A stretch of DNA of 24,000 nucleotides from Candidatus Jordarchaeia archaeon (lineage in GTDB: Archaea > Asgardarchaeota > Jordiarchaeia > Jordiarchaeales > Jordiarchaeaceae): NCBI GenBank assembly GCA_029856435.1, contig JAHQXB010000022.1, positions 25-24,024 on the forward strand, written 5' to 3'. Both the position numbers and the translations under genes were made by a program. The notes below the pieces were generated by a model, which was not told the origin of the DNA, searched no databases, and saw only the letters and a list, made by a program, of their open reading frames with translations. Positions within the stretch are counted from its first letter, which is position 1. Each line of letters starts with the position of its first letter. This document shows, piece after piece, positions 204 through 19,535 of the stretch.

Positions 204-215
204 TTTTTGGTGACA

Positions 216-830
216 CTAAAAAAGTCGGAGGAATTCGTCCAGTCCTTGGCCGGTTTTCTCGTTTCCCTCTACCCCCATCTCCCATTTTCCGCTCACCCCC
301 AGCATCACTCCCCGCCGTTGTAGAATGCGTCTAGGTCGGTCACGGCTATTTTCTCCTTCTCGTAGCTCAGGGTTTCTGGTTCTCCTTCTATACAGTAGTT
401 TTCGAGGGGGTCTATGTGGCTTTCCAGAGTATGCTGGGCTTGACGCCGTAGAATGCTTTGGTCTTCTCAACGCTGGAGTTAAGGTAGATGTAGGCTGCGA
501 TCGCCATTATCATCTTCTTGAACCTGAAGATAGTACTCTTGAAGGTGTTTGTGGATGGGTGCCTTTTTTCCGCATCTTTTGCATAGGAATGCTTATGTTC
601 AGGCTCCGTTTTGTCCATCCTTGACCGGGGGGAGCCGCAGAAGCGGCGCAGCAATCTTCTTGGTATCAGTATGGTGGTGTTGACTGCTTCTGGTATTAGG
701 GGTGGTGTTGATCTTCTTCACTACGTTCCAGCTTTTCTCCATCTCCTCATTTGGGGACGTGATTTCGATTTCGGGTGTTTGGGTTGAGACAGGTCTCAGG
801 TCTCCTTTTGGGGGTACATAAGTCGCCGTG
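216..830 (-). pseudogene. Possible decayed DDE (IS4/IS5-like) transposase remnant
   Basis: Protein-like minus-strand sequence is split over several frames by stops or frameshifts. One piece is ..DKTEPEHKHSYAKDAEKRHPSTNTFKSTIFRFKKMIMAIAAYIYLN..YGVKPSIL (654..415). The next is HIDPLENYCIEGEPETLSYEKEKIAVTDLDAFYNGGE (418..308, a different frame), followed by a tail ending at 216. The F.FKKMIMAIA and IAVTDxxFY blocks loosely resemble the GYK.H.A.D and ..aDrGY blocks of DDE_Tnp_1 transposases. I could not identify terminal inverted repeats. Confidence 0.3.
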
Positions 831-990
831 GTTCATAACATCATCACCCTTATAACCCCCAACGAAAATATTCCTTTTGGGACACCATCACTCGCTAACC
901 GAAGGTGTTATTTTTATATTGTGAAAAAATATAAAATTAAAGACTTAACATAGTATATTGAACCTTCCTGATTTCTAAAAATTCTGGGTA

Positions 991-3048: not shown

Positions 3049-3058
3049 AAAATAAAAT

Positions 3059-5304: not shown

Positions 5305-5345
5305 GACCCAAGCCTTCCTTGATTTGTAAATATTAGTTGAATCTG

Positions 5346-6485
5346 CTATAGGGAGAGAGTATTTTTCTTTTTGGCGGATGGGAAGGAGCCCATTATTTTT
5401 ACCTCTCCGGCGATTTTTCTAATATTTATTATTGCCTCCTTAACCTTTGGGTCTTTTCTGTGGCCTTCCAAATCCACAAAAAATATGTAGTCTCCTAAAA
5501 CTCTTTTTGAGGGTCTAGACTCGATTCTTGTAAGGTTGATGTTTCTTTCTTTGAACTGCTCTAAAACTTCGCATAAAGCACCGGGTCTATCCTGCAATAG
5601 AAATATGGCTATGGAGGTTTTATCTTGGCCTGTGGGTTCAGTGTCTTCGGGGGCTATGACTGCGAACCGGGTTTCATTGGTTTGTTCATCCTGTATTCCC
5701 TCGGCGAGCACAGTCATTCCATAAAGTTTTGCGGCTGCTAGGCTACCGATGGCCGCTATGTTTGTGTCTTCTTCTTCTGCAACCATCTTAACCGCCTCTG
5801 CGGTGCTAAGAGTTTCATAGAGATGTGCATGTGGTAGCTTTTTGGCTAGAAATGTTCTACACTGGGCCAAAGCTTGTGGATGAGAGTAAACCTTCGTTAT
5901 TTTGTCAAGGCTTATTTTTTCTTTTGAAATTAAATTGTGTACCACGGGTAGGATGATTTCTCCACAAATCTTTGCCTCGCTTCGAGCTAAGAGGTCCAGG
6001 GTTATCGTTACACTGCCTTCCACCGAATTTTCAATGGGGATGATTCCAATGTCCACATGTTTATTTTCCACAGCAGATATAATACTTGCAATTGTTGACA
6101 TGGGAATTAGTTCCGCTTCGGTTCCCGTTGCGTATTTTAGGGCGGCTTCTTCTGTGAAGGTTCCACGTGGGGATAAATAAGCAATTTTTTTGACTTCGCC
6201 CCTCACCTCGCCTTCCGTTCTTCTTCCATACTCAATGATTTCAAGGAAAATCTTATTCACAAAACTGGGATCCAAGCCCATTTCGACTGCCCTTTTTTCA
6301 CTATTGGCAATTACTTGTGTTTCCCTTTTCTGGTCTCTAATCTTCAATTTCAAACTTGACTTTACTTTGGCTAGCTCCCTGATCTTATCTCTTCTCTGGG
6401 CTAAGAGCTCCACTATCTGTGAATCGATTTCGTCTATTTTCTTCCTAATGGTTACCAACTTATCTTCATAATTTTTTGATGTCAC
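5346..6485 (-). CDS. pheA: Bifunctional chorismate mutase / prephenate dehydratase with C-terminal ACT domain
   Basis: There is an N-terminal helical CM_2-like region (LVTIRKKIDEIDSQIVELLAQRRD...). PDT motifs IAYLSPRGTFTEEAA and LTRIESRPSK follow, and the tail is ACT-like. The start is GTG, with a GGTG SD-like element just upstream. Confidence 0.85.
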   Translation of the reverse strand: MTSKNYEDKLVTIRKKIDEIDSQIVELLAQRRDKIRELAKVKSSLKLKIRDQKRETQVIANSEKRAVEMGLDPSFVNKIFLEIIEYGRRTEGEVRGEVKKIAYLSPRGTFTEEAALKYATGTEAELIPMSTIASIISAVENKHVDIGIIPIENSVEGSVTITLDLLARSEAKICGEIILPVVHNLISKEKISLDKITKVYSHPQALAQCRTFLAKKLPHAHLYETLSTAEAVKMVAEEEDTNIAAIGSLAAAKLYGMTVLAEGIQDEQTNETRFAVIAPEDTEPTGQDKTSIAIFLLQDRPGALCEVLEQFKERNINLTRIESRPSKRVLGDYIFFVDLEGHRKDPKVKEAIINIRKIAGEVKIMGSFPSAKKKNTLSL

Positions 6486-6654
6486 TTCTCACACCAATCT
6501 GCGACTTAAGAATGCAGATTACTTTTTTAGATTTATAACTTTCTGTTAGGTAGTATTGGGACTTGCAAAACCAATATATTGTCCTTTGAGTCTCTTTTTA
6601 ATATTAAAAAATTTAAATCCTTTGACCTATTTCCGGAATTTACGGTGCCTTACT

Positions 6655-7437
6655 ATGTGTAAATTGTTAGCCTTATCTGGTAGTAGTGAAGAAGACAACA
6701 AAGGTATTTTGGAAGCTTTTGTTAAAAAATTTGGGTCTACAAATCCAGATGGTTGGGGAATGGCCTATCTGGACGAATCAACTGGACTATACCGTATCAA
6801 AAAGGTTTACCATAGGGACCGACGACGGTTGGAGGAGGCTTTCTTCCGTGATTTAGGAGAGGTAAAAACCAGGTCGTTAATTGCTCATTTACGAAAGGCA
6901 TCAATCGGTCGGAAGAGTCAAGAGAACTGCCATCCCTTCGAAGGATACATAGATAACCACCAATTTATCTTTGTACATAATGGTAGTGTGTGGCCCAGAA
7001 GAGTTCTTGAATCTAAACTGGTTAACCATAAACCAGAATCTGATGATCCCACTGATTCAGAACTGGTTTTCTGCTACATCATGGAAGTTTTAGAAGAAAG
7101 GGGTGTCAATCTGAACTCGTGGCGGGATATAGTTGAAACTATAAATAGTGTAGTTTTAAGCATCCGCTCGGAGGCCCTTATTACTAAATTTAATTTCATA
7201 CTCGCCGATAAAAGTTACATATACTGCTACAACTGGGGTGAACTCCAATATTCACTAATTGAGGAAAGCACTAATAGCAAACTTCCCAACGAAACATTCT
7301 CCCCCAGTAATGGAAAATTTTTAGTGTGCAGTAGACCTCTAATGGAACCCCCTTCTTGGAACTCCATACCCCCAAAAACCATTTTGGTTCTACGAGAGGG
7401 AAAAATACAATTCTCAAGCAAAAATACTAGATTCTAG
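6655..7437 (+). CDS. Class II (Ntn) glutamine amidotransferase, YafJ-like
   Basis: The product begins MCKLLALSG, where Cys2 is the catalytic nucleophile after Met removal. It also has GWGMAY and IAHLRKAS..NCHPF motifs. The track ORF starts at 6556, but the conserved MC start at 6655 is preferred. Confidence 0.7.
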   Translation: MCKLLALSGSSEEDNKGILEAFVKKFGSTNPDGWGMAYLDESTGLYRIKKVYHRDRRRLEEAFFRDLGEVKTRSLIAHLRKASIGRKSQENCHPFEGYIDNHQFIFVHNGSVWPRRVLESKLVNHKPESDDPTDSELVFCYIMEVLEERGVNLNSWRDIVETINSVVLSIRSEALITKFNFILADKSYIYCYNWGELQYSLIEESTNSKLPNETFSPSNGKFLVCSRPLMEPPSWNSIPPKTILVLREGKIQFSSKNTRF

Positions 7438-7580
7438 GTAGCTAATTTTTAAATTAAACCCAAATATATATAATTGTAAAATGTACTCATAACAATTAAT
7501 TTAGATTTAATGATAATTGGTTATTTAAAAAAGAGACCAAGTTTCCATGAAGCATTATCCGTTTTTGGAGGGTAACCCAA

Positions 7581-8873
7581 TTGAAAGCACTAATACTTGC
7601 GGGCGGAACGGGTAAAAGGCTCTTCCCCTTAACAGAGACTCTTCCCAAAGCCATGATTCCACTGGCTGGGAAACCGGTGCTGGAGTATGTTATAGAATAC
7701 TTGGTTCACACCAACTTGAATGACATCATCATTGTGGTGGGACCTAAAAAGGAGCAAATTTGTGATTACTTCTCAACAGGTAAGGATTTCGGGGCAAATA
7801 TTTCGTATGTAGAGCAAAAGAGACCAGTGGGAGTGGAGGACGCAATTCTCACCGCTCTACCAGTGTTGGAAAAAGAGGAGGAATTCCTAATTGTTCATTC
7901 TGATTTTGTTGCCTCCAGCGAAATAATCCGTAGAGCTATAGAATATCATAAGGGTTTAGATTCCGATGCCACTATTGTGATTACCTTGGTTGACGATCCT
8001 GCCCTTTATGGTGCGGTGGAAATTGATGAAAACGCGAGAATTAAGAGAATTATTGAGAAGCCTAAAAAAGAGGAGGCCCCAAGCAACTATGCTGCAGCAG
8101 GAGTTTATGTCTTTAGGGGGGAGTTCCTAAAGAAATTGGAGGAAACAAAGAGATTTGACGTGGCTGTCCAATTAATGATAGAGGAGGATAAAACGGTTTA
8201 TGGTATGGTTTGGGAAAAGGATTGGATTGAGATAACCTATCCTTGGGATATTCTAAAGGCTAACAGATTCGTTCTGGCCCAAAGGCTTAAAGGTAAGGGC
8301 TCTTTTATTGCAGAAAGCGCGCAGATTGATAGCACTGCCAAAATAGAGGCTCCGGTTTGGATTTGTGACGACGTGATAATAAGGCCTCGCGCGGTCATAA
8401 GAGGCCCCTGTTTCATTGGTCCAGACAGTTTTATTGGTGATGGAGCCCTAATAAGAGACCACACCTCAATAGGTAAGCATGTTTCCATAGGGTTCGGAGT
8501 AGAAATAAAAAATAGTTTAATACTTGACAACTCCTCTGTTGGAAGATTAAGTTATATTGGCGAGAGTATAATAGGAAGATCAGTTAAAATCGGGGCGGGA
8601 ACTCAGACGTGGAATATTAAAATGAGGGGAGGCCCCCCAATAGAAATGAATATTGATGATAAAAAAGTTCCAGTACCCGCAGAACGGTTCGGTGCTATTA
8701 TAGGGGAGAATGCTGAAATAAGCATTAACGTTTCAATATTTCCAGGCAAAAAGATTGGCGCAGGGTCAACGGTATTCCCCGGAGTGATAGTTGAAGAAGA
8801 CGTTCCCTCAAATGCGGAGGTAAGAGCCAAACAAGAAATTAAAATCGTTACAAAAAAAGATTCTAAACTATAA
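7581..8873 (+). CDS. Sugar-1-phosphate nucleotidyltransferase with C-terminal left-handed beta-helix (archaeal GlmU/ST0452-like)
   Basis: The N-terminus is MKALILAGGTGKRLFPLT..PKAMIPLAGKP. Hexapeptide repeats follow (IGDGALIRDHTSIGKHVSIGFGVEIKNS...). The start is TTG, with GGAGGGT about 10 nt upstream. Confidence 0.8.
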   Translation: MKALILAGGTGKRLFPLTETLPKAMIPLAGKPVLEYVIEYLVHTNLNDIIIVVGPKKEQICDYFSTGKDFGANISYVEQKRPVGVEDAILTALPVLEKEEEFLIVHSDFVASSEIIRRAIEYHKGLDSDATIVITLVDDPALYGAVEIDENARIKRIIEKPKKEEAPSNYAAAGVYVFRGEFLKKLEETKRFDVAVQLMIEEDKTVYGMVWEKDWIEITYPWDILKANRFVLAQRLKGKGSFIAESAQIDSTAKIEAPVWICDDVIIRPRAVIRGPCFIGPDSFIGDGALIRDHTSIGKHVSIGFGVEIKNSLILDNSSVGRLSYIGESIIGRSVKIGAGTQTWNIKMRGGPPIEMNIDDKKVPVPAERFGAIIGENAEISINVSIFPGKKIGAGSTVFPGVIVEEDVPSNAEVRAKQEIKIVTKKDSKL

Positions 8874-8884
8874 AGGTATTTGTG

Positions 8885-9502
8885 ATGTTTATGTTGGAGG
8901 CTTTTTACCAAAAATTAGATGAAGACATTAAAACTGCTAATGATTTGGAGAAGAGGGGAGATTTTAGAGCTGCGGCGAAACTTTGGATTGAGATAGCTGA
9001 ATACTGCTTAAAATTTGCTAGATCTGAATATGCTTCCGAGGAAATTAGAAAAAACCTTATTGAGAGGTCTGAAGGCTATATTGAGCATGCAAAAATGCTA
9101 AAAATTAGACCAGCACCCTTAAAGGGCTCCATAGAAAAAAGCTCCCCGGCAATAGATTATTTGGAAAAAGCTTTGGATGATAAGATTAGGGCTGATAAAC
9201 AGTGGGTAGCCCTTGACTTAAACTCGTACATAATAACTATGTTTGGTGTAATTGAAAAGCTGCTCTACCATGTTTACATCTCCAAAACGGGTAATCTTCC
9301 TCATTTCGAAGAAACATTTACTTCTCTTGTTAAATGGGCCTACCGGGAAGGAATTATTAGTGATCATCCCGACAATATTGAATTCGTTAGGCTCCTTTAC
9401 GAAAAATTATCCAAAAAATCGCAAAAAATAACTAGTGAACAGGCTATGGAAGCAAGAGAAATAATGGAGCGAGTGTACAAAGAGTTATGCGAAAACCTAT
9501 AG
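8885..9502 (+). CDS. Small helical protein with MIT-like N-terminal three-helix domain (putative)
   Basis: Residues ~5-75 read YQKLDEDIKTANDLEKRGDFRAAAKLWIEIAEYCLKFARSEYASEEIRKNLIERSEGYIEHAKMLK. This follows the MIT pattern seen in Vps4/CdvC (A..a...G....A...Y..A...l........  ....Y..R...LK). The C-terminal half is a helical bundle, possibly HEPN-like, and remains unassigned. The gene starts 8-11 nt after the preceding gene's stop. Confidence 0.45.
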   Translation: MFMLEAFYQKLDEDIKTANDLEKRGDFRAAAKLWIEIAEYCLKFARSEYASEEIRKNLIERSEGYIEHAKMLKIRPAPLKGSIEKSSPAIDYLEKALDDKIRADKQWVALDLNSYIITMFGVIEKLLYHVYISKTGNLPHFEETFTSLVKWAYREGIISDHPDNIEFVRLLYEKLSKKSQKITSEQAMEAREIMERVYKELCENL

Positions 9503-9647
9503 ATTTTCTCATTAATTTTTTTCCTAAACCTCTCCTTAACCAAGGTTATTTTAGGCTTCCTTCCCCCAAAAAAGGTGAAAAAACCACATTTTCTGGAAGT
9601 GAAAAGGAAAAATTAACTGGAGAGTCTACATTACTTTCATATGCCTT

Positions 9648-10349
9648 CTACTTCTTTTTCCAAACCTTCTTTATTTCCTCTTCAGAGGCTAGTCTGAAGG
9701 TTTGAGTCTCTGCGTCAATGATGCCTAGATCTATGTCTTCAGGCTGAAGGTTTTCGGAAACTTCCCTCAAGGTGTCTACCGCCAGTTTTAACATTTCACT
9801 TATCGACATATCCTCCTTATACCCTGCTTTCAGAATTTCCAAAGCCTTAGGTTCATTAGCCCCAACCGCTGCGGCTTTGCTTTTGGTCAAGGCTCCCGAA
9901 GTGTCTATGAGAACTATTTCCGAGCCCCCTCTGCTTATTCCTCCGAAAAGTAAGGCACATCCAAATGGGCGTGTTCCCCCTAACTGTGTAAAGCGCTGCA
10001 TAAGACGCCCTAGCCTTTGGGCAAGTGTACTAACATCTATTTTTTCATCGTATGTTACTCTATACGATTGAGCTATGATTCTTGCTCTGTCAAGTAGAAG
10101 TCTTGAATCCGACATGTATCCGGCACTCGTGGCGCCTATGTGGTCGTCGATTTTCAAAACTTTTTCATGGGATTCAAGCAGTTTGCTATGTGTTTTTGCC
10201 ACCCCTGCTAATACCACGCCCTTAGATGTTTTTATTCCAACAGCCGGCGCTCCTTTTTTAACTGCCTCGCTGGAATACTCCACTTGAATGATACGCCCTT
10301 CAGGAGAATACATTGTGCTACTTTTATCATAATCCATCTCGTCGGACAT
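9648..10349 (-). CDS. psmA: Proteasome subunit alpha
   Basis: The N-terminus YDKSSTMYSPEGRIIQVEYSSEAVKKGAPAVGIKTSKGVVLAG is the alpha-subunit signature (YD...t.FSPeGRl.QVEYA). Length is 233 aa. Confidence 0.9.
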   Translation of the reverse strand: MSDEMDYDKSSTMYSPEGRIIQVEYSSEAVKKGAPAVGIKTSKGVVLAGVAKTHSKLLESHEKVLKIDDHIGATSAGYMSDSRLLLDRARIIAQSYRVTYDEKIDVSTLAQRLGRLMQRFTQLGGTRPFGCALLFGGISRGGSEIVLIDTSGALTKSKAAAVGANEPKALEILKAGYKEDMSISEMLKLAVDTLREVSENLQPEDIDLGIIDAETQTFRLASEEEIKKVWKKK

Positions 10350-10825: not shown

Positions 10826-11650
10826 TTACTTGCTAGAAATTTTTTTGAGCACATCTCGAATATCATATAAGCAGGTTAGGACACTTTCTATATCAAGTAT
10901 ATCTTGCTGTAGCAAGTTGCCGGCGCGTGAAAGGTCTATCTGTAATCTGAGTATAAAGGGTGAAAAGCCCTCGTTTAATTCAGGGTTTTCGGTATAAATC
11001 GCTGCGTGTATCAAGTCAACGCCGCCGTAGCCTAGGTCGAAAAGCAAGTCGTCAACTTTCAAAAGCAACTCAACTATTCGTTGCTTATCACCCTCGGTGC
11101 GTAGTTCTGCCTCGGCATCAGACAAACTTTTACTAATCTCTTCCAGCCTCTTTTTCAAAGAATCCGCGTTTATAGGCCTCTCCTCTCGATACATGGTAGC
11201 CTCTGGGCAGAAATTAAACCACCACTCAAAGTAGTGCGCTGTGCTGCAGAAGAATTTTTTATCATGATTTAATGGCTCCACGGAAACAGTGTACATGCAT
11301 TCTTCACCACAAATAGTGCACACCCCCGTCCCGTCTTGATATGGCCTGATACCTCCACAAAAAGGTACACGAACGTACATAGCGTCGCCTTTGGGGGGTA
11401 GAAGATTAGGGGGAATTTGCAACTCTTTACTGAATGGTTTTGAGTCTAATTCGGCAAATATTGCAGTCCAGACCGGGCCTCGTGGAGTTCGAACTAAAAG
11501 AGGATTTCTTCTCGGGTGGTTGTTGCAATACGTCCAATATGGATCTTCAATTTTGAAGTTTCTAACCTCACAGAAGGGCTCTTGGCCTTTATCCCTATTT
11601 GCTTTATTGAATATACATGTTCCACAGCAGTCGCTGCCACCATTAGGCAT
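10826..11650 (-). CDS. Cysteine-rich hypothetical protein with FCS/TRASH-like zinc-finger signature
   Basis: This is a 274-aa ORF. It contains the Cys clusters SDCCGTC..FCEV..YCNNHP and VCTICGEEC-x19-FFCSTAHYFEWW (CxxC ... FCS..H). The C-terminal ~110 aa are helical. No family was recognised beyond the zinc-finger pattern. Confidence 0.55.
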   Translation of the reverse strand: MPNGGSDCCGTCIFNKANRDKGQEPFCEVRNFKIEDPYWTYCNNHPRRNPLLVRTPRGPVWTAIFAELDSKPFSKELQIPPNLLPPKGDAMYVRVPFCGGIRPYQDGTGVCTICGEECMYTVSVEPLNHDKKFFCSTAHYFEWWFNFCPEATMYREERPINADSLKKRLEEISKSLSDAEAELRTEGDKQRIVELLLKVDDLLFDLGYGGVDLIHAAIYTENPELNEGFSPFILRLQIDLSRAGNLLQQDILDIESVLTCLYDIRDVLKKISSK

Positions 11651-12048
11651 AATAATTCTCTCCTAAAACCACACAATGCAATTAATCCTTTCTACTTATC
11701 TGATATGTGCTTACATAGGGTCGGGTGGTATTTGAATTTTGTACATTTCAGGTACACTTATTGGGTGTTGTAAGGTTTCGAGTGTTCATCGCTTACAAAA
11801 TGTTATTTATGGTGTATCTTTCGTCAATAATATGTGCTGAGTTGTAGTGTAATGCCTTTTTAATATAGTAACTGTTTTATCCCTTTTTAGATAAAATTGT
11901 GGCGGTTCTGGGATTTTAATAAACTTCTTTCTTAAGAATTATGGCAATATTTTGGTAACATCTGGCTATAGTTTCTCACTCTACGGGGATAATAGTCAAT
12001 ATAATAAGTGACTTTCACTAGGTTTTTAAAGGCGGTGGGTTCGATTTG

Positions 12049-13545
12049 ATGTCTCTAGATAGATTCAAGTGTACTTCTTGTAATGAGGCTGAGGCGGCTT
12101 ACTACTGTGAGGACTGCAAATCAGCTTTCTGTATGGGATGCGCCCAGGAGAGAAGGGAGGAGTTTTTTATCTGCGATTCGTGTGGCTTCAAGGAAACAAA
12201 CCTTGGAATAGATAGGGATAAGAAAAGCTCCTCAAGATGTCCAAATTGTGGTTCAACTAATTTGAGATCTGGGATTAGAAAATGGAAACTTTGTCCTAAC
12301 TGTCGCTCTGGTATGGTTATAAGCGTTCAAGATAAGAGGGTGGAGCTAAAAAAAACCTTTATTGATAATGTTAACAGTATTCTATATGGTTATGAATTGT
12401 TGAAAGATTTTTCGAGGAGACTTAGGGAAACTAGAAAGAGGCTAATCTTTCTCAGACACAGAGGGTATTTCCACTATCCAAAAATGGAGGAAACTCTAAT
12501 CTCTCTGTTCCAAGAAATTATTTCCTTGAAAAAGAAGGTGGAGGCACGGGCTCAACAGGTCTTAAATGTGATTCAAGTGCAACTCGTAGATTTTTCTTAC
12601 CCTGATAATTGGAGCCCACACGATTTTGCACAGATTCAAACAGCAGTGGACAGGATAAAAGCCGATGTGAATGACTACAAAGAATATGTGAAGGGTCTTA
12701 TGGAACAACCTGAAAAGAATCTCGAGACTGTTGTTTCCTTGGTAAAATTGCTGAGTTTTCACTGGAAGTTCTTTGAGGAACATAGAGAAAAAATTGATTT
12801 AGAAATTGGGGAAAAACCTGTAGCAGCCATTCAGAGGGTAAAATATGTGGGAAGCTCTTTTCTCAGTTTAGAAAAATGTAGTGGAATACTTTTGTTAACA
12901 GATAAAAGGATAATTTTTATCAGGGAAAAGGGACTTCTAAACAAGTCGTACCAGAAACATTTTGAACTCCCCTTAAAAGCTCACCAAATTGTAGTTGAAG
13001 GATCCATATGGAAAAAACTCTCTTTTGAAGGTTCACAGGGAGATGTGCGTTTCTCTGCATCCAAAAATACACTAAAAGCAATTGAAAGATACGTAGAATT
13101 AGCTAAAAACTTTGATAAAAGCTCCATAAAGGATAAAACCCAAACCGAAAAACTGGAAAAACTGGAAATAGCCCTAGACGACCTGAAAACTGAGCTACAC
13201 AAAAAAATTATGAGCATTTTCACACCCAAAATTAAGGAGCCCAGTTACGGATTCGAACCACAGCCACATGTTCCCACTGTCACTTCCAGATCTGCTCAAA
13301 AATCTACACCCCCACCATCCACTTATAATCGGGTACAAGTTCAAACTGTGGAAGGATCAGGAAGAGGGGATGTACTAGATTGGGAGCGAAAGAAATTCTC
13401 CGTTGAGCAGCTCCTCAAAAAAATTGAGGAGCTTTGGCGACGTGGGGACATTTCTGTAGAAGAGTATCTAAAAAGAATGAAGAATCTTTATGAAGAACTC
13501 TATGTCTTGAACCAAAAATTGAAAGAAATCCAAGTTCAGGCCTAA
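12049..13545 (+). CDS. Multi-zinc-finger (B-box-like + zinc ribbon) protein with PH/GRAM/GLUE-like domain and SHOCT-like C-terminal tail
   Basis: Six CxxC pairs lie at 12070..12303, with spacing C-x2-C-x8-C-x2-C-x4-C-x2-C-x10-C-x2-C-x18-C-x2-C-x14-C-x2-C. The stretch at 12817..13110 reads VKYVGSSFLSLEKCSGILLLTDKRIIFIREKG...VRFSASKNTLKAIERYVELAKN, a G.L.LT..R.IF split-beta-sandwich pattern. A Pro/Ser/Thr-rich linker follows, then KIEELWRRGDISVEEYLKRMKNLYEEL. I prefer ATG 12049 over the track's TTG 12046; GGCGGTGGG lies upstream. Confidence 0.65.
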   Translation: MSLDRFKCTSCNEAEAAYYCEDCKSAFCMGCAQERREEFFICDSCGFKETNLGIDRDKKSSSRCPNCGSTNLRSGIRKWKLCPNCRSGMVISVQDKRVELKKTFIDNVNSILYGYELLKDFSRRLRETRKRLIFLRHRGYFHYPKMEETLISLFQEIISLKKKVEARAQQVLNVIQVQLVDFSYPDNWSPHDFAQIQTAVDRIKADVNDYKEYVKGLMEQPEKNLETVVSLVKLLSFHWKFFEEHREKIDLEIGEKPVAAIQRVKYVGSSFLSLEKCSGILLLTDKRIIFIREKGLLNKSYQKHFELPLKAHQIVVEGSIWKKLSFEGSQGDVRFSASKNTLKAIERYVELAKNFDKSSIKDKTQTEKLEKLEIALDDLKTELHKKIMSIFTPKIKEPSYGFEPQPHVPTVTSRSAQKSTPPPSTYNRVQVQTVEGSGRGDVLDWERKKFSVEQLLKKIEELWRRGDISVEEYLKRMKNLYEELYVLNQKLKEIQVQA

Positions 13546-13613: not shown

Positions 13614-14249
13614 CTATTCCTTTTCTTTGGGCTTCTTTGAACTCTCCAACTCCCTCCTTAGATCTTCTAGCTCAGATGCCAAGGAAGATTTTTCTGTTAT
13701 TATGTCTCCTTGTGGTACTTTAGGTTCCTCTATTCCCTCTAATGCTATTTCCGCTTCTAGACGGTTTAACTCACTTTCAATGTCTCCTGCTTCTTCAACG
13801 CCCATTTCGGAGGGAGTCGCCAAAATTTCTGAGCTTCTAGAAATTTCGTGCATAGCTTCCTCTTGCTTTATCATCATTTCGAGTATCTGTTCCGAGTTGA
13901 CGAGTTTTCGGGCGTTTTCAAGCTCCGCTCCTGCCAATTCAAATGCTTCTTTGAGTTCTGAAACGTCATGGGCTTCTTCTATGGCGATGAGCCTCGTTTC
14001 AAGGTTCTCGATAAATGCGGTGTACTTGCCTAGAAAATTCTGGTATCTTCTGAACTTTCTGAGGGCGAATGTTGCCATGCCCTTGTTACCCATTTTTAAG
14101 TATTGTTTAGCCCTGTTTCTCTCCTCAATTGCCTTTCTCTCGTAGTTCCGTGAACGCAGAGTCAACCTGTTTATACTAGTTCTCAGCTGTGCAACTATTT
14201 CATCCTTATTTTTCGGCCTTTTTCCAAATAGTATATCTTTAATACTCAT
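13614..14249 (-). CDS. ESCRT-III family protein, Snf7 (Vps20/32/60)-like
   Basis: This is a 211-aa ORF. The stretch RNRAKQYLKMGNKGMATFALRKFRRYQNFLGKYTAFIENLETRLIAIEEAHDVSELKEAFELAGAELE aligns by eye with the yeast Snf7 core (EARIFLTKGNKVMAKNALKKKKTIEQLLSKVEGTMESMEQQLFSIESANLNLE, quoted from memory). The C-terminal half is acidic and ends in an amphipathic helix. AGGAG lies 9 nt upstream of the ATG. Confidence 0.75.
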   Translation of the reverse strand: MSIKDILFGKRPKNKDEIVAQLRTSINRLTLRSRNYERKAIEERNRAKQYLKMGNKGMATFALRKFRRYQNFLGKYTAFIENLETRLIAIEEAHDVSELKEAFELAGAELENARKLVNSEQILEMMIKQEEAMHEISRSSEILATPSEMGVEEAGDIESELNRLEAEIALEGIEEPKVPQGDIITEKSSLASELEDLRRELESSKKPKEKE

Positions 14250-14345: not shown

Positions 14346-15383
14346 CTATCCGTATATTCTGTTTATTTCTTTTTGTCTGGTTTCTATAAAATCGATGAAG
14401 CTTTCCAGTGAAGGATCCTCCTCAGCTTCCTCATGCACCAGTTCTGCTATGCTAAGCAGGGAGGCTGCCACATGGGTACGTGCGGGCTCAGATTTTATCT
14501 CAGGCTTAATGAGGGCTGCTATTCTCTTTTCAAAATCATTGAAAGTTAGGATTCTATCCACGAGGAGAATAAAGGATTCGGTTATTTTCCTTTCCAGATC
14601 CTGTTTTTCATCAAATATCAAGTTGGCTGCCAAATTTTTGAGGGCGGGTTTCACAATGTCCTCTCTAAACCAACTGAAAAGTTTGCCCTTTTTATCTGAT
14701 GGCGGAAGAAAGCTTGAAGCAGGGACACTAATAGTTTTAGGCTGTTTTTTAAAGTTCTCCGCCATTTTGTGAATGTCTGAGCCTTTAATGGTTTCCATTG
14801 CCGCTAGTACTAGCGACTTCACCCCCAAAACCACTTCTTTCCTACTGAAGACCTCCAACATTTTTTCCAGAGCGTGTTTGGCTTCCTCGTAGGAGACCTC
14901 CTTTAAAATAAAAGATTTGAAAAGTTCCAAGATTTTTGCTCTTGTTTCTAGAGCTTCACTATAGCCAACGCTATCCAGTGTCAGGATTCTATAGCCGGGA
15001 TCCAGAACTTGCTTGTCAAACCACTTCACAACTATGTATTCATCAGTAACTCTCTTTAAGTCCTCTAGAGTAAGTTTGGGCTCCACTTCCTCTAACTCAT
15101 CGCAAAGCTGTGAGGCAAATGTTTCAAATACCGAGGACACGTAGGTTTGGAGCGCTTCATCCAACTTGAGACCTTCTAAAATCTTCTCAACCTTCTTTTT
15201 AAACGTGGGCTCAGAAATTTTTCCTTCCACCCGCTGTTTAAAATATGGAAACGACTTCTCCTTAACTATCTGAGATTTCTCAACAAAATTAGTCACAATA
15301 CTGTCTAAGACGCCAAAAACCACATACTCAAAAAATTCTCTTAAAATTTTTAGACTCTTTTCTGAATCAAAAATGTAGGGCAT
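14346..15383 (-). CDS. Hypothetical all-helical protein, translationally coupled to the upstream ATPase gene
   Basis: This is a 345-aa ORF. It starts 16 nt after the ATPase stop, and that gap contains a GGTGA SD-like element. I recognised no motif. Confidence 0.6.
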   Translation of the reverse strand: MPYIFDSEKSLKILREFFEYVVFGVLDSIVTNFVEKSQIVKEKSFPYFKQRVEGKISEPTFKKKVEKILEGLKLDEALQTYVSSVFETFASQLCDELEEVEPKLTLEDLKRVTDEYIVVKWFDKQVLDPGYRILTLDSVGYSEALETRAKILELFKSFILKEVSYEEAKHALEKMLEVFSRKEVVLGVKSLVLAAMETIKGSDIHKMAENFKKQPKTISVPASSFLPPSDKKGKLFSWFREDIVKPALKNLAANLIFDEKQDLERKITESFILLVDRILTFNDFEKRIAALIKPEIKSEPARTHVAASLLSIAELVHEEAEEDPSLESFIDFIETRQKEINRIYG

Positions 15384-15399
15384 TCAAATTCACCAAGAA

Positions 15400-18300
15400 T
15401 CATTCGATAAGTGATCTGCGCAGTTGCTCAATTTTTTCGAAAGCTTTCCTCTTCAAGAAAACATACTCATCTTCAGACATCCTACCCAACTCAAAATACT
15501 CGTGCAAGCTCCTTAAATATTTCTGGAATTTCTCTATCTGCCTCAGAATCTCTTCCTGCCTTTTCTCCTTACCAGACAACTTTTCCTCCCCCGCTTCCTC
15601 TAATGGTTTTACGCTCACTGGTTCGCCTACCGGCTTACTAACTTCTGGTTCGCTTACTGGTTTACTAATTTCCGGTTCAACGCTCTCTTCGGCGCTTATT
15701 CTGGGTACTGGTAGTGGGCTGGTCAATTCTGGAGGTTCCTCCCTCACTGTGGTTTCCTTAATTAGGGGTTTTGGCCTTGGTCTACGGGGAGCCGCCTTTA
15801 AGCCTCTAACTATCTCTTTAATTGTTGTTACTATGCCTGTCGCCTCATTTTTAAGCGCCGAAGTGGATGAGACACCAATTACTGTGTTTTCCTCGGTTTC
15901 AACTATTCCTACGGCTAATCTTGACTTCTCCTTAGAGGCTAAAACCACAGGTACACTTTTTGTCGCGTCTATCTCTGTTTGCCAGCCGTCTTCCCTCAAT
16001 TTTGTGTAAATTTCACGGACGGCTTCTCCGCCGCGTCCCTGCGTCACTATTGATTCTGCTACTCCCTCCATTTTGGGAGCTGGATATAAATGATCGTAAA
16101 ATCTGTATTCCAAGACACGCTTTAGGTAGTCAGAGGCCAAATCCGTTGGTAGGCTGAGTACGGGTGGGGCTGGTATTGATATGTCTGGGGACACTTCCAC
16201 CCTTTCTTCTTCTATAAGTTCTTCCAAAGCTTCTAAGGTCTCGGTCTCTTTTTCGGGTGTACTCCCTATTTCCTCGACGGTTTTTTCAATTTCCGGAGTG
16301 GCAACCTTTTTTGGAGCAATGGCTGTGAGTTCCCCAATTATCTTGGGAAGGGCTTCGCGGCCGGAATGCTGACTCAGTCTCGGTCTTATCTTAACTACAA
16401 GGGCACGGTTACTGGTAATAGATTCGTCTGAAACAATGGTCATTCCAACGGGAATGTTCCTTATAAATCCGGAATCCTTTATTTCTATGGGGACTTCTGC
16501 TGGTGATCTTTTTGTGAAAGCAGTAATGTCTGGTTCATAGGACAAATAATGTGTTATCAGCACGTCTAGTTGAGATAAAATTCTACTATCTGTGGCTGAG
16601 GGTTGCTGGGTCACAAGCACTAATCCACAGCCGGGTTTCCTTCCCAGTTTAGCATATTCTACGAGCGGTTCAGAAGCTGCAGTAGCACCTTTAGAGGGAG
16701 CGAGTAGATGAGCTTCATCAATCATCAGCCAAGTCACAGGAATCTCTGCCTCAACCTTTTCCTCCGTTGCCTCGCCCAGCTGTGCAGCCTCTTCCCTTCT
16801 TGCTATCTGCGCTCTCACCTTAAGTATCCTTCGCGCCAGTATGCCAATAATTAGAGCACGCAGACTATCATCTATATGACTTACGTCAATGACAGATACC
16901 TGATTGGGAACCGCTAACTGAGTTAAGCTAGTTCCTTTGGCTGAGAAGATTCCCCACTGATTTGCGGAGGAAAATCTGGCAACCAAAGCTCTTCTAGTGT
17001 CACGCCTAAATCCCTTGTCCTCAGAAATAATGTCGGAACAAGTCTCAACACATTTAATTAAATCCTCTAGGCTGTAATCGTTTCCTTTAGCGGGGACATC
17101 CACTTCTTGGTCGTCGATTGTGGCCCTGTAGCCTTTTTTGACCCTATCAATGACCTGTTCTGTTAAGAGGCCAAGTGCGCCAAACCTGTCTATACCAAAG
17201 GTGTGGCACCAATCGTCAGCTGTTAACTCCGAGGGCCTCAACGAGAAAGGCATATCCCTAGTTTGCTCAGGAACCCTATCATAGAAACCAATTGGAATAA
17301 AGACCCTCACGTTATCGAATCCCTTAGGGGTGAGGTTCCATTTTTCAAGAGCTTCCAACTCTTTTTCATCCCAATTGGGATACTTCATACTCCAAAAGAT
17401 TCCCATGGGATCAACGATGATGGTGGCGATTCCCAGTCTTGATTCCGCTAACTCCTCTGCAATAACTCCCATAGTGTAAGATTTACCAGAGCCTCTATGA
17501 CCACTTATAAATATAACGTGAGGCTTCACCCCATCAAGAAGAACCTTACAGCCAAGCAGGTTCACATCTTTGCTAGTCCTCTCTCCCACACAACCAATGT
17601 AGAATGTTCCCCTGCAGCCAAGTTTGGCTTGTGTAGACTTTGTTCTCCCTAAAATTACTGATTCGCCTAGACTGTCTCTAAGAACATTGAGTGGGCTGTC
17701 AACTATTTTAGGCGTGTCAACTATATTTACCCTCTCAGAGTTAATCACACTCGCCTCACCAATAATGTAGGCTAGCGCCTGCCAGTAATCCTTCAAACTT
17801 TTAAAACCAATTTGCTCCGCAATGTACCTTCTAAGCTTTGGTTGTTTTGGGTACTTCTCTTTATCGAAGCTCGACAGGCTCCATAGAAGGAAATCCGCGG
17901 TTTCCTGAGCTGATAGTCTCCCTAATGGTTTAACCGCCTTCAGAGCTTTTTCCAAATATTCCATACTCTCGGTAGCCATCAAAAGAAGCAGAAATACCTC
18001 CACCCGCTTATTTATATCAATTGAACTTATGAGCTCAACCATATTGTCAAGAAATTTGTCATCTTCATTATACATAAAACCTTCAAAAAGAATCTTCGCA
18101 ATTTCTAGGTCGAGTGATTTCTGGAACAAAGCGAACTCCAATGCGGCCTGAAGAGACTTTTGAATCTTGTCGCTCCCAGATTCTGCCAGTAGTGAACGAA
18201 AGGCATGGACTATGGTTGCTGTGGCTTCGCCGTCTATTTCTCCCCTGCTTGAAAGCCAAGCTCCAGAATTTGATTGTAGAGAAATCAGTCCTTCAGCGGT

Positions 18301-18465
18301 TTCGTTAGATTTCTCCAAGAAGGACTTCTCGCCAGTAGCCCTATACATGAGGATATAACAGTTCAGAAGATAGGCCCTGTCTCTAATGGTCGCAGGTTCC
18401 ACCGTCAAAACGTTCTGGATAATGTTAGAAAGTAATTCACATAAGGGCCTTCCGCTAAATAACAT
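15400..18465 (-). CDS. HerA/FtsK-type (DUF87-like) P-loop ATPase with N-terminal helical domain and C-terminal extension
   Basis: Walker A is VIFISGHRGSGKSYTMG (GHRGSGKS at 17479..17502). Walker B is WLMIDEAHLL (16708..16728). The block GCGLVLVTQQPSATDSRILSQLDVLITHYL is typical of HerA/FtsK-like translocases, and the core ends KIRPRLSQHSG. About 320 aa of helical sequence precede the P-loop. About 320 aa follow the core, including 9-aa repeats and a SHOCT-like tail. GAGGGG lies about 8 nt upstream of the ATG. Confidence 0.8.
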   Translation of the reverse strand: MLFSGRPLCELLSNIIQNVLTVEPATIRDRAYLLNCYILMYRATGEKSFLEKSNETAEGLISLQSNSGAWLSSRGEIDGEATATIVHAFRSLLAESGSDKIQKSLQAALEFALFQKSLDLEIAKILFEGFMYNEDDKFLDNMVELISSIDINKRVEVFLLLLMATESMEYLEKALKAVKPLGRLSAQETADFLLWSLSSFDKEKYPKQPKLRRYIAEQIGFKSLKDYWQALAYIIGEASVINSERVNIVDTPKIVDSPLNVLRDSLGESVILGRTKSTQAKLGCRGTFYIGCVGERTSKDVNLLGCKVLLDGVKPHVIFISGHRGSGKSYTMGVIAEELAESRLGIATIIVDPMGIFWSMKYPNWDEKELEALEKWNLTPKGFDNVRVFIPIGFYDRVPEQTRDMPFSLRPSELTADDWCHTFGIDRFGALGLLTEQVIDRVKKGYRATIDDQEVDVPAKGNDYSLEDLIKCVETCSDIISEDKGFRRDTRRALVARFSSANQWGIFSAKGTSLTQLAVPNQVSVIDVSHIDDSLRALIIGILARRILKVRAQIARREEAAQLGEATEEKVEAEIPVTWLMIDEAHLLAPSKGATAASEPLVEYAKLGRKPGCGLVLVTQQPSATDSRILSQLDVLITHYLSYEPDITAFTKRSPAEVPIEIKDSGFIRNIPVGMTIVSDESITSNRALVVKIRPRLSQHSGREALPKIIGELTAIAPKKVATPEIEKTVEEIGSTPEKETETLEALEELIEEERVEVSPDISIPAPPVLSLPTDLASDYLKRVLEYRFYDHLYPAPKMEGVAESIVTQGRGGEAVREIYTKLREDGWQTEIDATKSVPVVLASKEKSRLAVGIVETEENTVIGVSSTSALKNEATGIVTTIKEIVRGLKAAPRRPRPKPLIKETTVREEPPELTSPLPVPRISAEESVEPEISKPVSEPEVSKPVGEPVSVKPLEEAGEEKLSGKEKRQEEILRQIEKFQKYLRSLHEYFELGRMSEDEYVFLKRKAFEKIEQLRRSLIE
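15620..15673. repeat. Two tandem 27-nt units (22/27 identical) inside the ATPase gene, with degenerate flanking copies
   Basis: Unit 1 is ggttcgcctaccggcttactaacttct (15620..15646) and unit 2 is ggttcgcttactggtttactaatttcc (15647..15673). All five differences are C/T transitions. The units encode EPE(I/V)SKPV(S/G), a Pro/Glu/Lys-rich linker. Confidence 0.85.
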
Positions 18466-18508: not shown

Positions 18509-19120
18509 TCAGAGTTCTTCTTTCAATTTCTTAATGTCTTTTTCCAGTTCCTCAATCTTCCCGCTCGGTGCAGAAGGAAGCTTTACACCAGTCTCCACAC
18601 CGATTTCTTGGTCAATCTCGGAAATAGTTGCCGCAACCTCTTGGGATGTCACCTCAGTGGAAACCGTCATTCTCTCCATTCCCGCCTCAGCAACATCCTG
18701 AGCCACGTCAAAATCCTGCATAGTTCCATCTATTTCCTCAACCATTTGGGCTATGTCTGGCAAGTTAACTGCCCCCTTAAGCCCATTAAGAGCGGATCTT
18801 ATGCCTGATAGGGTGCTGGCAACATCATAAATGGACTCGCTCTGACGAAGCCTAACCACCATGCCTTGAATCCTGAGACGGTAGGCGTCTGTTGCTAGAG
18901 CCCACTTTGAATACCTTACATAGTGTTCGGCATACATTTTAGCTGCTTCTGTGTTTCCCCTAAGCCGGTACTTCTTGGCTTCCTCTCGGTTTTTTCTAGA
19001 CTCTCTCTCTAGCTGTTTTTTCTGATATTCAAGCTTGCGGGTGAACACTTCAAGTTTGTAAATAACATCTTTAATTTTAGGCCCACCCTTAAGCCAACTC
19101 ACAAACTTTTTTAGCGGCAT
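18509..19120 (-). CDS. ESCRT-III family protein, Vps2/24/46 (CHMP1/2/3)-like
   Basis: The stretch REEAKKYRLRGNTEAAKMYAEHYVRYSKWALATDAYRLRIQGMVVRLRQSESIYDVASTLSGIRSALNGLKGAVNLPDIAQMVEEIDGTMQDFDV aligns by eye with the yeast Vps2 core (IKKSAKNGQVAAAKVQAKDLVRTRNYIQKFDNMKAQLQAISLRIQAVRSSDQMTRSMSEATGLLAGMNRTMNLPQLQRISMEFEKQSDLM, quoted from memory). I set the start at the internal ATG 19120 (MPLKKFVSWLKGG...) rather than the track start at 19237. The reasons are a TATA-like element at 19153..19160 and the typical ESCRT-III N-terminus. Confidence 0.75.
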   Translation of the reverse strand: MPLKKFVSWLKGGPKIKDVIYKLEVFTRKLEYQKKQLERESRKNREEAKKYRLRGNTEAAKMYAEHYVRYSKWALATDAYRLRIQGMVVRLRQSESIYDVASTLSGIRSALNGLKGAVNLPDIAQMVEEIDGTMQDFDVAQDVAEAGMERMTVSTEVTSQEVAATISEIDQEIGVETGVKLPSAPSGKIEELEKDIKKLKEEL

Positions 19121-19152
19121 ATAAATTACACCAATAAACTCTTGATATATCC

Positions 19153-19160
19153 TATATAAG
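19153..19160 (-). promoter_or_regulatory. Candidate TATA box for the ESCRT-III/ATPase gene string
   Basis: The minus strand reads CTTATATA, about 32 nt upstream of ATG 19120. A GGTG lies 12-15 nt before that ATG. By eye only. Confidence 0.3.
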
Positions 19161-19535
19161 AAAATTGAGAAGGAAGCATATAACACTTTCTTAATGTGCA
19201 TTTGAGACCTTGTCGTAAGTATGTGGTTTGTTGACATGGTATGTGTGCAGGTTTAGCCATTCTTACCATTTTTTGGGCCTATTTGGAAGGAAGCCCTGTT
19301 AAGCCTCCTTTTTTTGAGAGGATCAAACGATTACGCATAGAAGAGAAGCTACATACTTAAGACGAGGTCCCTGTGCATTTTTTCCCCTCAAAACCGTTCC
19401 ACTTCCCATGTTTCTGGACTAAATTTGAAAATTTTAAATCACTCATAAAAGCTTCGAAGCGTTTAAAGCAAACATATAATCGCTTCGTCTAAACGCAAAT
19501 TGTGAAAGGCACTTAGCTTTTTTCATAGTACTAGA

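Follow-up and report, generated by a model that had tools for sequence, protein, structure and literature searches.

In archaea and eukaryotes, the core machinery of membrane scission is considered complete with ESCRT-III and Vps4. Among motors of the FtsK-HerA superfamily, FtsK and SpoIIIE move DNA through a membrane neck as it closes, and the division machinery is encoded with them or recruits them; FtsK clears DNA at the bacterial septum before scission. VirB4-type members act on pilin proteins. Recent surveys of archaeal ESCRT systems (including PMC11188069) are anchored on Vps4 and are silent on the ATPase described here. We found no mention of it in the searchable ESCRT literature, and nothing relevant on HerA, DUF87 or FtsK in connection with ESCRT or Asgard archaea. 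This ATPase is a new variant among known kinds, the HerA/FtsK motors and the ESCRT systems. The placement of its gene suggests an unrecognized second motor in the ESCRT machinery inherited by eukaryotes. Such a motor, unrelated to Vps4, would add a component to the machinery in which the origin of the eukaryotic endomembrane system is sought.

The ATPase gene is located in the window, the 24-kb stretch of DNA that was analyzed, from a Jord/Freyarchaeial Asgard archaeon. The ESCRT locus in the window contains five genes:

18509..19237, minus strand: ESCRT-IIIA (Vps2/24/46, CHMP1-like), immediately upstream of the ATPase gene; Pfam Snf7 2.4e-17
15400..18465, minus strand: HerA-clade ATPase with accessory domains, 1021 aa; ORF, Pfam, 184 homologues, AlphaFold2 model
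14346..15383, minus strand: 345-aa protein, follows the ATPase gene after 16 nt; no Pfam or PDB match
13614..14249, minus strand: ESCRT-IIIB (Vps20/32/60-like), last in the co-directional block; Pfam Snf7 1.9e-19
12046..13545, plus strand: Znr_PH_CC_SB, ESCRT-I-like, convergent with the block; Zn-ribbon and bPH matches

The first four form a co-directional block in the order ESCRT-IIIA, ATPase, 345-aa protein and ESCRT-IIIB, separated by 43, 16 and 96 nt. The best PDB matches of ESCRT-IIIA are CHMP1A/B (about 1e-11), and that of ESCRT-IIIB is the Heimdallarchaeal ESCRT-IIIB 9ftl (4.7e-13). The architecture of Znr_PH_CC_SB agrees with the description in PMC11188069, and its C-terminus shows a sub-threshold match to Pfam Vps23_core (0.0038). 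The gene for the 345-aa protein is directly 3' of the ATPase gene in 10 other loci. Homologues of this protein are all unnamed and found only in Asgard archaea, and the PADLOC models yielded only LeoBC at 0.0044. A NurA-like nuclease was considered for it and dropped, with no match of note in Pfam, PDB or PADLOC. The first-pass annotation viewed the ATPase alone, and missed both its position between ESCRT-IIIA and ESCRT-IIIB and the conservation of this position.

The linkage to ESCRT genes extends across archaea. Of 17 species-level Asgard loci with a toroid-bearing ATPase, 12 have flanking Snf7 (ESCRT-III) genes, and in several Asgard lineages the ATPase gene has its place between ESCRT-IIIA and ESCRT-IIIB. 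Among the five exceptions, three offer little or no downstream sequence: the available sequence of L016 and L036 stops with the ATPase gene or shortly beyond it, and L014 has about 3 kb. The linkage recurs among Asgard archaea of the Jord/Frey, Loki, Hel and Heimdall lineages, and also in one clade of metagenome-assembled genomes named Nitrososphaerota (taxon names are those of the depositors). Three distinct relatives in the latter group have the gene order Snf7, weak Snf7-like, Vps25 (ESCRT-II), ATPase and Vps4. In Loki- and Hel-type genomes, Vps4, Vps25 and UEV-Vps23 are encoded in the same loci. The conserved co-directional adjacency makes the ATPase a component of the ESCRT system by genomic association. 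Several of these loci encode Vps4 next to the ATPase, which therefore supplements Vps4 and does not replace it.

In a neighbor-joining tree without support values, one clade unites the ESCRT-linked proteins and most proteins that carry the C-terminal domain described below. The carriers outside this clade are the Thor/Hermod group and L053. Two Bathyarchaeota proteins (L081 and L084) are close relatives with the C-terminal domain, one also with the toroid, and ESCRT genes are not adjacent to them. One Bathyarchaeal member of the same clade is located between Orc1/Cdc6 and GINS plus RFC. The Thor/Hermod relatives have no ESCRT neighbors. Searched with an ESCRT-III HMM at an E limit of 1e-3, the Euryarchaeota, DPANN and Thor relatives showed no Snf7 neighbors; since the HMM was built from Asgard ESCRT-III, very divergent ESCRT-III or PspA neighbors may be missed. 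Fusions to DNA-binding domains, of the SAP and the MarR/TrmB winged-helix type, occur in some Euryarchaeota/DPANN relatives.

The 1021-aa ORF is present as the first-pass annotation described. Full-length sequences among the 184 homologues collected span 89% to about 34% identity, indicating that it is a real gene. The family is widespread, with at least 579 matches in one-genome-per-species data. These data define an uncharacterized archaeal HerA-like family with a strikingly conserved motor. The AlphaFold2 model of the protein has a mean pLDDT of 80, and shows the following organization:

17716..18465, minus strand: predicted (alpha/alpha)-toroid N-terminal domain, aa 1-250; separate model pLDDT 91, Foldseek, profile matches
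17518..17715, minus strand: short beta-rich segment at the position of the HerA HAS barrel, aa 251-316; AlphaFold2 strands
16360..17517, minus strand: P-loop motor core, aa 317-702; Foldseek HerA matches, family-wide conservation
17479..17502, minus strand: Walker A GHRGSGKS, aa 322-329; conservation in homologues
16708..16731, minus strand: Walker B WLMIDEAH, aa 579-586; conservation in homologues
16171..16359, minus strand: acidic disordered linker, aa 703-765; pLDDT below 50, pI 4.3
15796..16170, minus strand: C-terminal globular domain, aa 766-890; pLDDT about 85
15577..15795, minus strand: disordered Pro/Glu/Lys region, aa 891-963; pLDDT about 30
15618-15678: 27-nt tandem repeat; TRF, 2.3 copies, 85% matches
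15403..15576, minus strand: C-terminal helical hairpin, aa 964-1021 (..LGRMSEDEYVFLKRKAFEKIEQL..); AlphaFold2 helices

The motor is intact and falls in the HerA clade within the FtsK-HerA superfamily; the first-pass annotation had called it HerA-like. This is supported by Pfam (DUF87 2e-13, HerA_C 4.8e-6), sequence matches in the PDB and Foldseek, whose best matches to the motor are all HerA (9x1m at 4.5e-15; 4d2i with a TMt of 0.60). Matches to Pfam AAA families (AAA, AAA_16 and AAA_22) are far below their cut-offs. Walker A, placed correctly by the annotation at around residue 322, and Walker B are invariant or nearly so among 45 homologues. The invariant residues are G322, G325, S326, G327, K328 and S329 in the former, and W579, D583, E584 and A585 in the latter. 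Across 88 archaeal relatives, conservation reaches 90% or more at 74 positions of the motor, eight of which are Arg and one Lys/Arg. The motor core is 45-51% identical to those of the Euryarchaeota/DPANN relatives. By analogy to its structural relatives, the motor probably forms a hexameric-type P-loop ring.

The N-terminal domain is an (alpha/alpha)-toroid according to its predicted structure. Twelve helices are found in aa 8-247, with pLDDT above 90. The annotation had noted an all-helical region with a motif reminiscent of such toroids and proposed AlphaFold modeling and a Foldseek search as a check. A Foldseek search with the model of the isolated domain retrieved GH76 mannanases, complement TED domains and AGE-type epimerases, at E 5e-4 to 1e-2 and a TMq of about 0.6. 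Its sequence profile on its own matches GH76 (E 1.5e-3), and also LanC, squalene-hopene cyclase and GH88/127-type proteins. Compared to (alpha/alpha)6-toroid proteins of this fold (GH76, C3d/C5 TED, N-acylglucosamine 2-epimerase and LanC), the toroid in the ATPase is about 10% identical, shorter (250 versus 300-400 aa), cytosolic and fused to a motor. No conserved catalytic motif was seen in it. The LQSNSGAW motif at aa 62-69 is located inside the toroid; Q..SGxW-like motifs are retained in some lineages only, and the residues invariant among homologues, W195, P206, R212 and E237, are located elsewhere. The toroid is restricted to the N-terminus of this ATPase family, in 12 clusters among 1.84e9 representatives. 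An MIT/TPR-like array binding ESCRT-III tails, which we also considered for this region, is ruled out by the toroid fold.

The toroid had been thought to stand in place of the HAS barrel. This idea is not supported, because a reduced beta segment persists at aa 255-316, with predicted strands at 269-272, 287-293 and 307-311. Every relative keeps the segment, even where the toroid is missing. In the model, the toroid is an addition in front of the beta segment and not a substitute for it.

The extra elements proposed C-terminal to the motor were largely found. In the model the motor core extends to about aa 700 and the acidic linker is disordered at aa 703-762; the length of this linker ranges between 38 and 114 aa in the homologues. 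The additional domain, expected to be about 110 aa, has a folded alpha/beta part of about 115 aa (aa 774-887), with the element order helix, strand, helix, four strands, helix. Its strand-helix-four strands-helix order in the model resembles a TBP-like/helix-grip unit; profile searches with it against PDB sequences and Pfam gave nothing significant. The domain is present in Asgard, Nitrososphaerota-named, Bathyarchaeal and Thor relatives, and absent in Euryarchaeota/DPANN relatives. The Pro/Glu/Lys region, disordered at aa 896-963 in the model, and the hairpin are found in the Jord/Frey clade only. The 9-aa repeats in the former are real, matching the 27-nt period, but few. The terminal helix is a hairpin, with predicted helices at 965-992 and 998-1020. 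The SHOCT identity assigned to it was dropped, as Pfam gave no SHOCT match on the isolated tail at E up to 10. An hhalign comparison of the tail with the C-termini of Znr_PH_CC_SB and Vps23 (steadiness box) gave a weak match (E 0.0017, probability 16%), and Pfam Vps23_core did not match the tail. Of the earlier interpretation as a whole, the toroid, the HerA-like motor and the C-terminal extras are retained, whereas the SHOCT label and the replacement of the HAS barrel are not.

Structural comparison indicated that HerA is the closest described system. Sulfolobus HerA (4D2I), Thermococcus HerA-NurA (9X1L/M) and Deinococcus HerA (7WRW) rank first by structure, with E from 1e-15 to 1e-12 and a TMt of at most 0.60 across some 450 columns. 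HerA also leads the PDB sequence matches, and DUF87 and HerA_C are common to both. However, the ATPase scores 46 and 45 bits with the NCBIfam HerA equivalog models, whose cut-offs are 800 and 970. Compared to HerA, it has an additional 250-aa toroid before the reduced beta segment and a 320-aa C-terminal extension. Its locus has ESCRT-III neighbors instead of NurA, Sir2, DUF4297 or another nuclease or effector. The anti-phage HerA systems (Sir2-HerA, DUF4297-HerA, TdpAB and MADS mad8) have a similar motor, but the ATPase has no effector gene and its chromosomal place is conserved in ESCRT loci. The PADLOC mad8 model matches the motor at 2.9e-18, a similarity confined to the ATPase level, and no other MADS genes of note were found among three other window proteins scanned. 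A search of 2.9 million viral contigs turned up only one distant relative. A mobile element or defense island is thus unlikely.

FtsK and SpoIIIE, in the same superfamily, are likewise modular motors with long disordered linkers, although FtsK and viral structures match the motor more poorly than HerA does. Unlike them, the ATPase has no N-terminal membrane domain. No transmembrane-like segment is present, as the annotation claimed; 19-residue Kyte-Doolittle means peak at 1.32, and the protein is not the membrane-embedded secretion ATPase that the annotation had called unlikely. It also gave no wHTH match corresponding to the gamma winged-helix domain, and by analogy its recruitment would be mediated by ESCRT proteins, not FtsZ. 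Vps4/CdvC is similarly encoded beside ESCRT-III genes in the same loci. Its fold class is unrelated, AAA+ as opposed to an ASCE FtsK-HerA motor. No MIT or Vps4_C match was found in the ATPase, whose N-terminal domain is a predicted toroid and not a three-helix MIT.

Gene order and homology lead us to propose, tentatively and with confidence a little short of even, that the ATPase is a dedicated motor of the ESCRT-III module that moves DNA at membrane necks. It would translocate DNA through its ring, like its structural relatives. The toroid, the C-terminal domain and the 345-aa partner would dock it on ESCRT-III or ESCRT-I assemblies at the constricting neck, with the steadiness-box-like hairpin also helping in Jord/Frey archaea. 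The motor would then shift DNA relative to the neck, either clearing it before scission as FtsK does, or loading it into a bud. DNA is the probable substrate by analogy: the best structural matches are all DNA translocases, and those from viruses are FtsK or packaging ATPases. The DNA-binding fusions of Euryarchaeota/DPANN relatives with a similar core, the family-wide conserved core positions and the replication-gene neighbors of the Bathyarchaeal member point the same way. DNA is bound by Loki ESCRT-III and promotes its assembly into tubes in vitro (10.1101/2021.11.29.470303; PMC11791191). Several points weigh on the other side. No recognizable DNA-binding domain was found in the ATPase, which counts against a DNA pump. 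The Bathyarchaeota proteins L081 and L084 and the Thor/Hermod relatives have no adjacent ESCRT genes. Asgard archaea are thought to divide using FtsZ (review PMC7619361), so an FtsK-like role in cytokinesis is not obvious.

The motor may instead act on protein, remodeling, nucleating or exchanging ESCRT-III subunits, or extracting or threading cargo, beside Vps4, with the toroid and the 345-aa protein as substrate adaptors. The location of the gene exactly between those of ESCRT-IIIA and ESCRT-IIIB, the missing match to a DNA-binding domain and the precedent of the VirB4-type relatives are consistent with this, as is the toroid, which, judging from HerA complexes, would be on the partner-binding face of HerA-type rings. 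We consider it unlikely, however. An MIT-bearing Vps4 is already encoded in the same loci, the N-terminal domain is not MIT-like, and the best PDB matches, all HerA-type DNA translocases, include no protein unfoldase. The motor is also nearly unchanged compared to relatives that have DNA-binding fusions and replication-gene neighbors.

Retention of the linkage in at least four Asgard lineages and the Nitrososphaerota-named group, despite differing surrounding genes, argues against a role of its own for the ATPase in DNA repair, segregation or defense, in which the adjacency would reflect shared regulation or inherited synteny. The tight co-directional spacing, the lack of a nuclease or other defense partner in our searches and the near absence of the family from viral contigs also make such a role improbable, although some clade members are not adjacent to ESCRT genes, the Euryarchaeota and DPANN relatives have no Snf7 neighbors, and PADLOC shows mad8 and HerA-type similarity. 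It is even less probable, to the point of being hard to credit, that the motor substitutes for Vps4 in ESCRT-III recycling in Jord/Freyarchaeia. No Vps4 gene was found in the window or in the 9 kb upstream at locus L002, in line with such a substitution, but the two ATPases are encoded side by side in Loki/Hel-type and Nitrososphaerota-named loci.

It is possible, though doubtful, that Asgard ESCRT-III, from which the eukaryotic machinery directly descends, natively includes a HerA/FtsK-type DNA pump that was lost toward eukaryotes. The ancestral role of Asgard ESCRT-III would then be to couple membrane constriction or scission with actively handling DNA. It could keep necks free of chromosomes, load DNA into vesicles or protrusions, or close membranes around it. 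The DNA- and chromatin-related functions of eukaryotic ESCRT would then be its remnant. The ATPase would also provide a testable handle on the DNA binding of Loki ESCRT-III and on the effect of DNA on its polymerization.

The true start of ESCRT-IIIA in the window is probably Met40 at 19120, giving a protein of 203 aa; its orthologue at locus L002 is 203 aa long.

Gene context is the main result on the ATPase, a 1021-aa P-loop motor protein of the HerA clade. Its gene is the second of four tightly spaced co-directional genes, and a fifth gene converges with this block.

18509..19237 (-): ESCRT-IIIA (Snf7); best PDB matches CHMP1A/B; 43 nt from the ATPase gene
15400..18465 (-): the ATPase
14346..15383 (-): 345-aa protein; 16 nt beyond the ATPase gene
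13614..14249 (-): ESCRT-IIIB (Snf7); best match Heimdallarchaeal ESCRT-IIIB 9ftl (4.7e-13); 96 nt beyond the 345-aa gene
12046..13545 (+): 499-aa ESCRT-I-like protein, convergent with the block; Zn-ribbons, PH-like domain, coiled coil and Vps23-core-like C-terminus

The ESCRT-IIIA open reading frame is probably called too long, with its true start at Met40 (nt 19120), because the PDB alignments start at about residue 57 and the orthologue in L002, another Jordarchaeia/Freyarchaeia locus, has 203 aa. The architecture of the 499-aa protein is that of the Asgard-specific ‘Znr_PH_CC_SB’ ESCRT-I-like protein (PMC11188069), and its gene keeps its place beside ESCRT-IIIB in L001 and L005. Searches detected no relatives of known function for the 345-aa protein.

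The ORF of 1021 codons at 15400..18465 (-) is a real gene. An identical protein is on record, in a cluster named only ‘DUF87 domain-containing protein [Candidatus Jordarchaeaceae archaeon]’. The 184 homologues range from 89% identity in Frey/Jordarchaeia to full-length matches at about 34% in Loki, Hel and Heimdall archaea.

Scanning a set with one genome per species yielded 80 loci, which were analysed by ORF calling, HMM searches and clustering. Seventeen of the 80 encode an ATPase bearing the N-terminal toroid domain, and ESCRT-III genes adjoin it in 12 of these 17, a linkage defined by gene order only. The arrangements are listed below, with taxon names of the MAGs as assigned by depositors; the Hel-type group comprises Helarchaeota L008 and relatives whose labels are unclear or read uncultured.

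Jordarchaeia/Freyarchaeia L001, L002: ESCRT-IIIA, ATPase, 345-aa protein, then ESCRT-IIIB (seen in L001; the L002 contig stops before it)
Promethearchaeota-named L003: ESCRT-IIIA, ATPase, 345-aa protein; no ESCRT-IIIB downstream
Hel-type L004, L007, L008: ESCRT-IIIA, ATPase, ESCRT-IIIB
Hel-type L006: ESCRT-IIIA, ATPase; contig ends past the ATPase
Heimdall-type L013, L015, L017, L026: ATPase, 345-aa protein, one or two small genes, ESCRT-IIIB

Five toroid loci have no Snf7 match; among them, L016 and L036 stop at or just past the ATPase gene, and L014 extends only about 3 kb downstream. ESCRT-IIIB is also found downstream of the ATPase in the truncated Jordarchaeia locus L005, where the toroid was not recovered. 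The genes just upstream in L003 (labelled Promethearchaeota), L004 (Deferrimicrobium), L006 (uncultured) and L008 (Helarchaeota) include Vps4 (MIT, AAA and Vps4_C) and Vps25. Upstream in L004 there is also UEV-Vps23, and L008 has its cluster-mate. These upstream genes place the ATPase inside the canonical Asgard ESCRT locus.

An AlphaFold2 model of the full-length ATPase was built on an alignment of 45 homologues (mean pLDDT 80). Every structural statement on the protein comes from predictions.

aa 8-247: N-domain, twelve helices (pLDDT >90)
aa 269-272, 287-293, 307-311: strands of a short beta segment
to about aa 700: motor
aa 703-762: disordered acidic linker (pI 4.3)
aa 774-887: folded C-domain; helix, strand, helix, four strands, helix (pLDDT ~85)
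aa 896-963: disordered Pro/Glu/Lys stretch
aa 965-1020: terminal helical hairpin

Much of this layout had been anticipated by the first-pass annotation. Its all-helical N-region, acidic linker after the core and extra C-terminal domain of ~110 aa all appear in the model, and its terminal helix is predicted to be a hairpin. At the DNA level, the Pro/Glu/Lys 9-aa repeats that it described are 2.3 copies of a 27-nt tandem repeat (15618-15678). It placed the Walker A motif near residue 322, where GHRGSGKS is found (aa 322-329); this motif and Walker B (WLMIDEAH, aa 579-586) are invariant or near-invariant in the 45 aligned homologues. As it had also proposed, no transmembrane-like segment is present in the 1021-aa sequence. 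A SHOCT-like tail, however, gained no backing, as the hairpin matches neither the SHOCT nor the Vps23_core model of Pfam.

The N-domain, modelled separately (pLDDT 91), is predicted to be an alpha/alpha toroid, on which structure matches and sequence profiles agree. Its Foldseek matches are (alpha/alpha)6 toroids, including GH76 mannanases (E 5e-4, TMq 0.62), complement C5/C3d TED domains, and AGE-type isomerases and epimerases. The sequence profile finds GH76 in the PDB at E 1.5e-3. Among 1.84 billion representatives, it gives weak multi-repeat matches to proteins with LanC, squalene-hopene cyclase, GH76/88/127 and TED domains. A ‘Q..SGxW’ motif had earlier been taken as a hint of a toroid; the fold was rightly guessed, but the motif is kept in some lineages only. 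The invariant residues are W195, P206, R212 and E237. Strong profile matches (E <1e-10) in the same 1.84 billion representatives are confined to 12 clusters, all N-termini of the same ATPase family, which marks the toroid as a private acquisition of this family.

The C-terminal regions differ in their distribution. Profile searches detected no relatives of known function for the C-domain. The Pro/Glu/Lys region and hairpin occur in the Jordarchaeia/Freyarchaeia clade only; other homologues stop after the C-domain. The hairpin pattern ‘G-[DER]-[IM]-[ST]-x-x-E-Y’ also occurs in the steadiness-box region of the neighbouring Znr_PH_CC_SB protein and of Vps23 from Hel-type loci. Profile comparison of the hairpin with the steadiness box is weak (E 0.0017, probability 16%).

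The only Pfam matches in the ATPase are DUF87 (aa 320-547, 2e-13) and HerA_C (aa 565-641). The best PDB matches of the full-length model in a Foldseek search are all HerA: Thermococcus HerA-NurA 9x1m (4.5e-15), Deinococcus HerA 7wrw, the anti-phage HerA 8xav and 8wld, and Sulfolobus HerA 4d2i (TMt 0.60 over 449 columns). Matches among viral proteins score lower; these are FtsK-like or packaging ATPases. The NCBIfam HerA models score about 46 bits, far under their cut-offs of 800-970. Together, these results indicate that the ATPase belongs to the HerA clade by its predicted fold, yet is not an orthologue of a characterised HerA.

Relatives of 747-770 aa come from MAGs named Nitrososphaeria or Nitrososphaerota. 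They keep the motor and C-domain and have a different N-terminus of 130 aa. Their gene order, in three distinct versions, is Snf7, a weak Snf7-like gene, ESCRT-II/Vps25, ATPase, Vps4. A neighbour-joining tree of the core, computed with no support values, groups all ESCRT-linked proteins and most C-domain proteins in one clade, separate from Euryarchaeota/DPANN relatives. The C-domain is also found in L053 and in the Thor/Hermod group, both of which lie outside this clade; Thor/Hermod proteins lack the toroid, and their genes have no Snf7 neighbour.

In the literature searched, no paper names both ‘DUF87’ and ‘ESCRT’, and nothing relevant links HerA or FtsK to ESCRT and Asgard. An ATPase of this kind goes unmentioned in the main ESCRT surveys and in Asgard ESCRT papers, although published synteny figures may show the gene without a label. 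The ATPase is rated as a new HerA-clade subfamily with a new architecture, and its locus as an ESCRT locus that carries a further conserved motor.

The Vps4 gene adjoins the ATPase gene in several lineages, which indicates that the motor complements Vps4 and does not replace it. Several lines point to DNA as its substrate. The close structural relatives are all DNA translocases. The motor shares 45-51% identity with Euryarchaeota/DPANN relatives, some of which bear C-terminal SAP and MarR/TrmB winged-helix domains. Across all 88 sequences, 74 core positions are at least 90% conserved, including eight Arg and one Lys/Arg, which argues for one substrate class across the family. On a Bathyarchaeota chromosome (L057 8383-16770), a relative of the same clade directly follows Orc1/Cdc6 and precedes a small ORF, a beta-CASP metallo-beta-lactamase nuclease, GINS and two RFC subunits. 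Independently, Loki ESCRT-III binds DNA, which promotes its tube assembly in vitro; the authors describe the physiological meaning as unknown (10.1101/2021.11.29.470303; PMC11791191).

From these lines we favour a DNA pump at ESCRT-III necks, resembling FtsK in its logic. Recruitment of the motor would run through its accessory domains together with the 345-aa partner; both substrate and contacts are what we infer. Remodelling of proteins by the motor is the main rival to pumping of DNA. A function mechanistically independent of ESCRT is less likely, since the linkage to ESCRT genes persists while surrounding genes change. There are exceptions to this linkage: no ESCRT genes lie next to those for L081, a Bathyarchaeal protein that has both toroid and C-domain, and L084, a short relative.

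Several further observations concern the relatives. In L084 (12165-13520), too, a beta-CASP gene lies just downstream of the relative, past small ORFs, and may encode a nuclease partner in the L057/L084 sub-clade. The Thor/Hermod loci (L065-L080) lack the toroid and a Snf7 gene, and most keep the C-domain. Two neighbours are also kept, a 773-aa TPR protein and a winged-helix protein of 205 aa that weakly matches EAP30/Vps36 (ESCRT-II-like; 2.9e-4; e.g. L065 4790-5407 (-)). L082 belongs to the Nitrososphaerota-named relatives, and its ATPase has no toroid. About 9 kb from that ATPase, a second large protein (1-1139 (-)) has faint alpha/alpha-toroid family matches and weakly matches the N-domain profile (E 3e-6, repeated hairpins). 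This locus also encodes FHA proteins, a Band_7 protein and a protein kinase. Heimdall-type loci encode ~1040-aa proteins (cluster c5, no Pfam match) divergently upstream of the ATPase. L013, L016, L017 and L035 have two copies (about 700-9800), and L014, L015 and L026 are further loci of this kind. A LarC-like gene and another uncharacterised gene accompany them in most of these loci. In the Hel-type loci L004, L007 and L008, the gene for the DNA polymerase D large subunit (DP2) follows ESCRT-IIIB at a distance of three to four genes, which may be mere synteny among related genomes.

Within the window, a 206-aa protein about 4 kb from the operon (8882-9502 (+)) has a sub-threshold MIT match (5e-4) and a faint HEPN match, making it a candidate further ESCRT-III-binding factor. 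A Cys-rich 274-aa protein (10826-11650 (-)) has no family match, and its position near the ESCRT block is kept in L001. A 685-aa protein (991-3048 (+)) resembles a eukaryote-like trafficking protein, with a longin domain at its N-terminus (Fuz_longin_1, 1.8e-6) and a long remainder that gives only weak, sub-threshold matches to helical and coiled-coil-type families.
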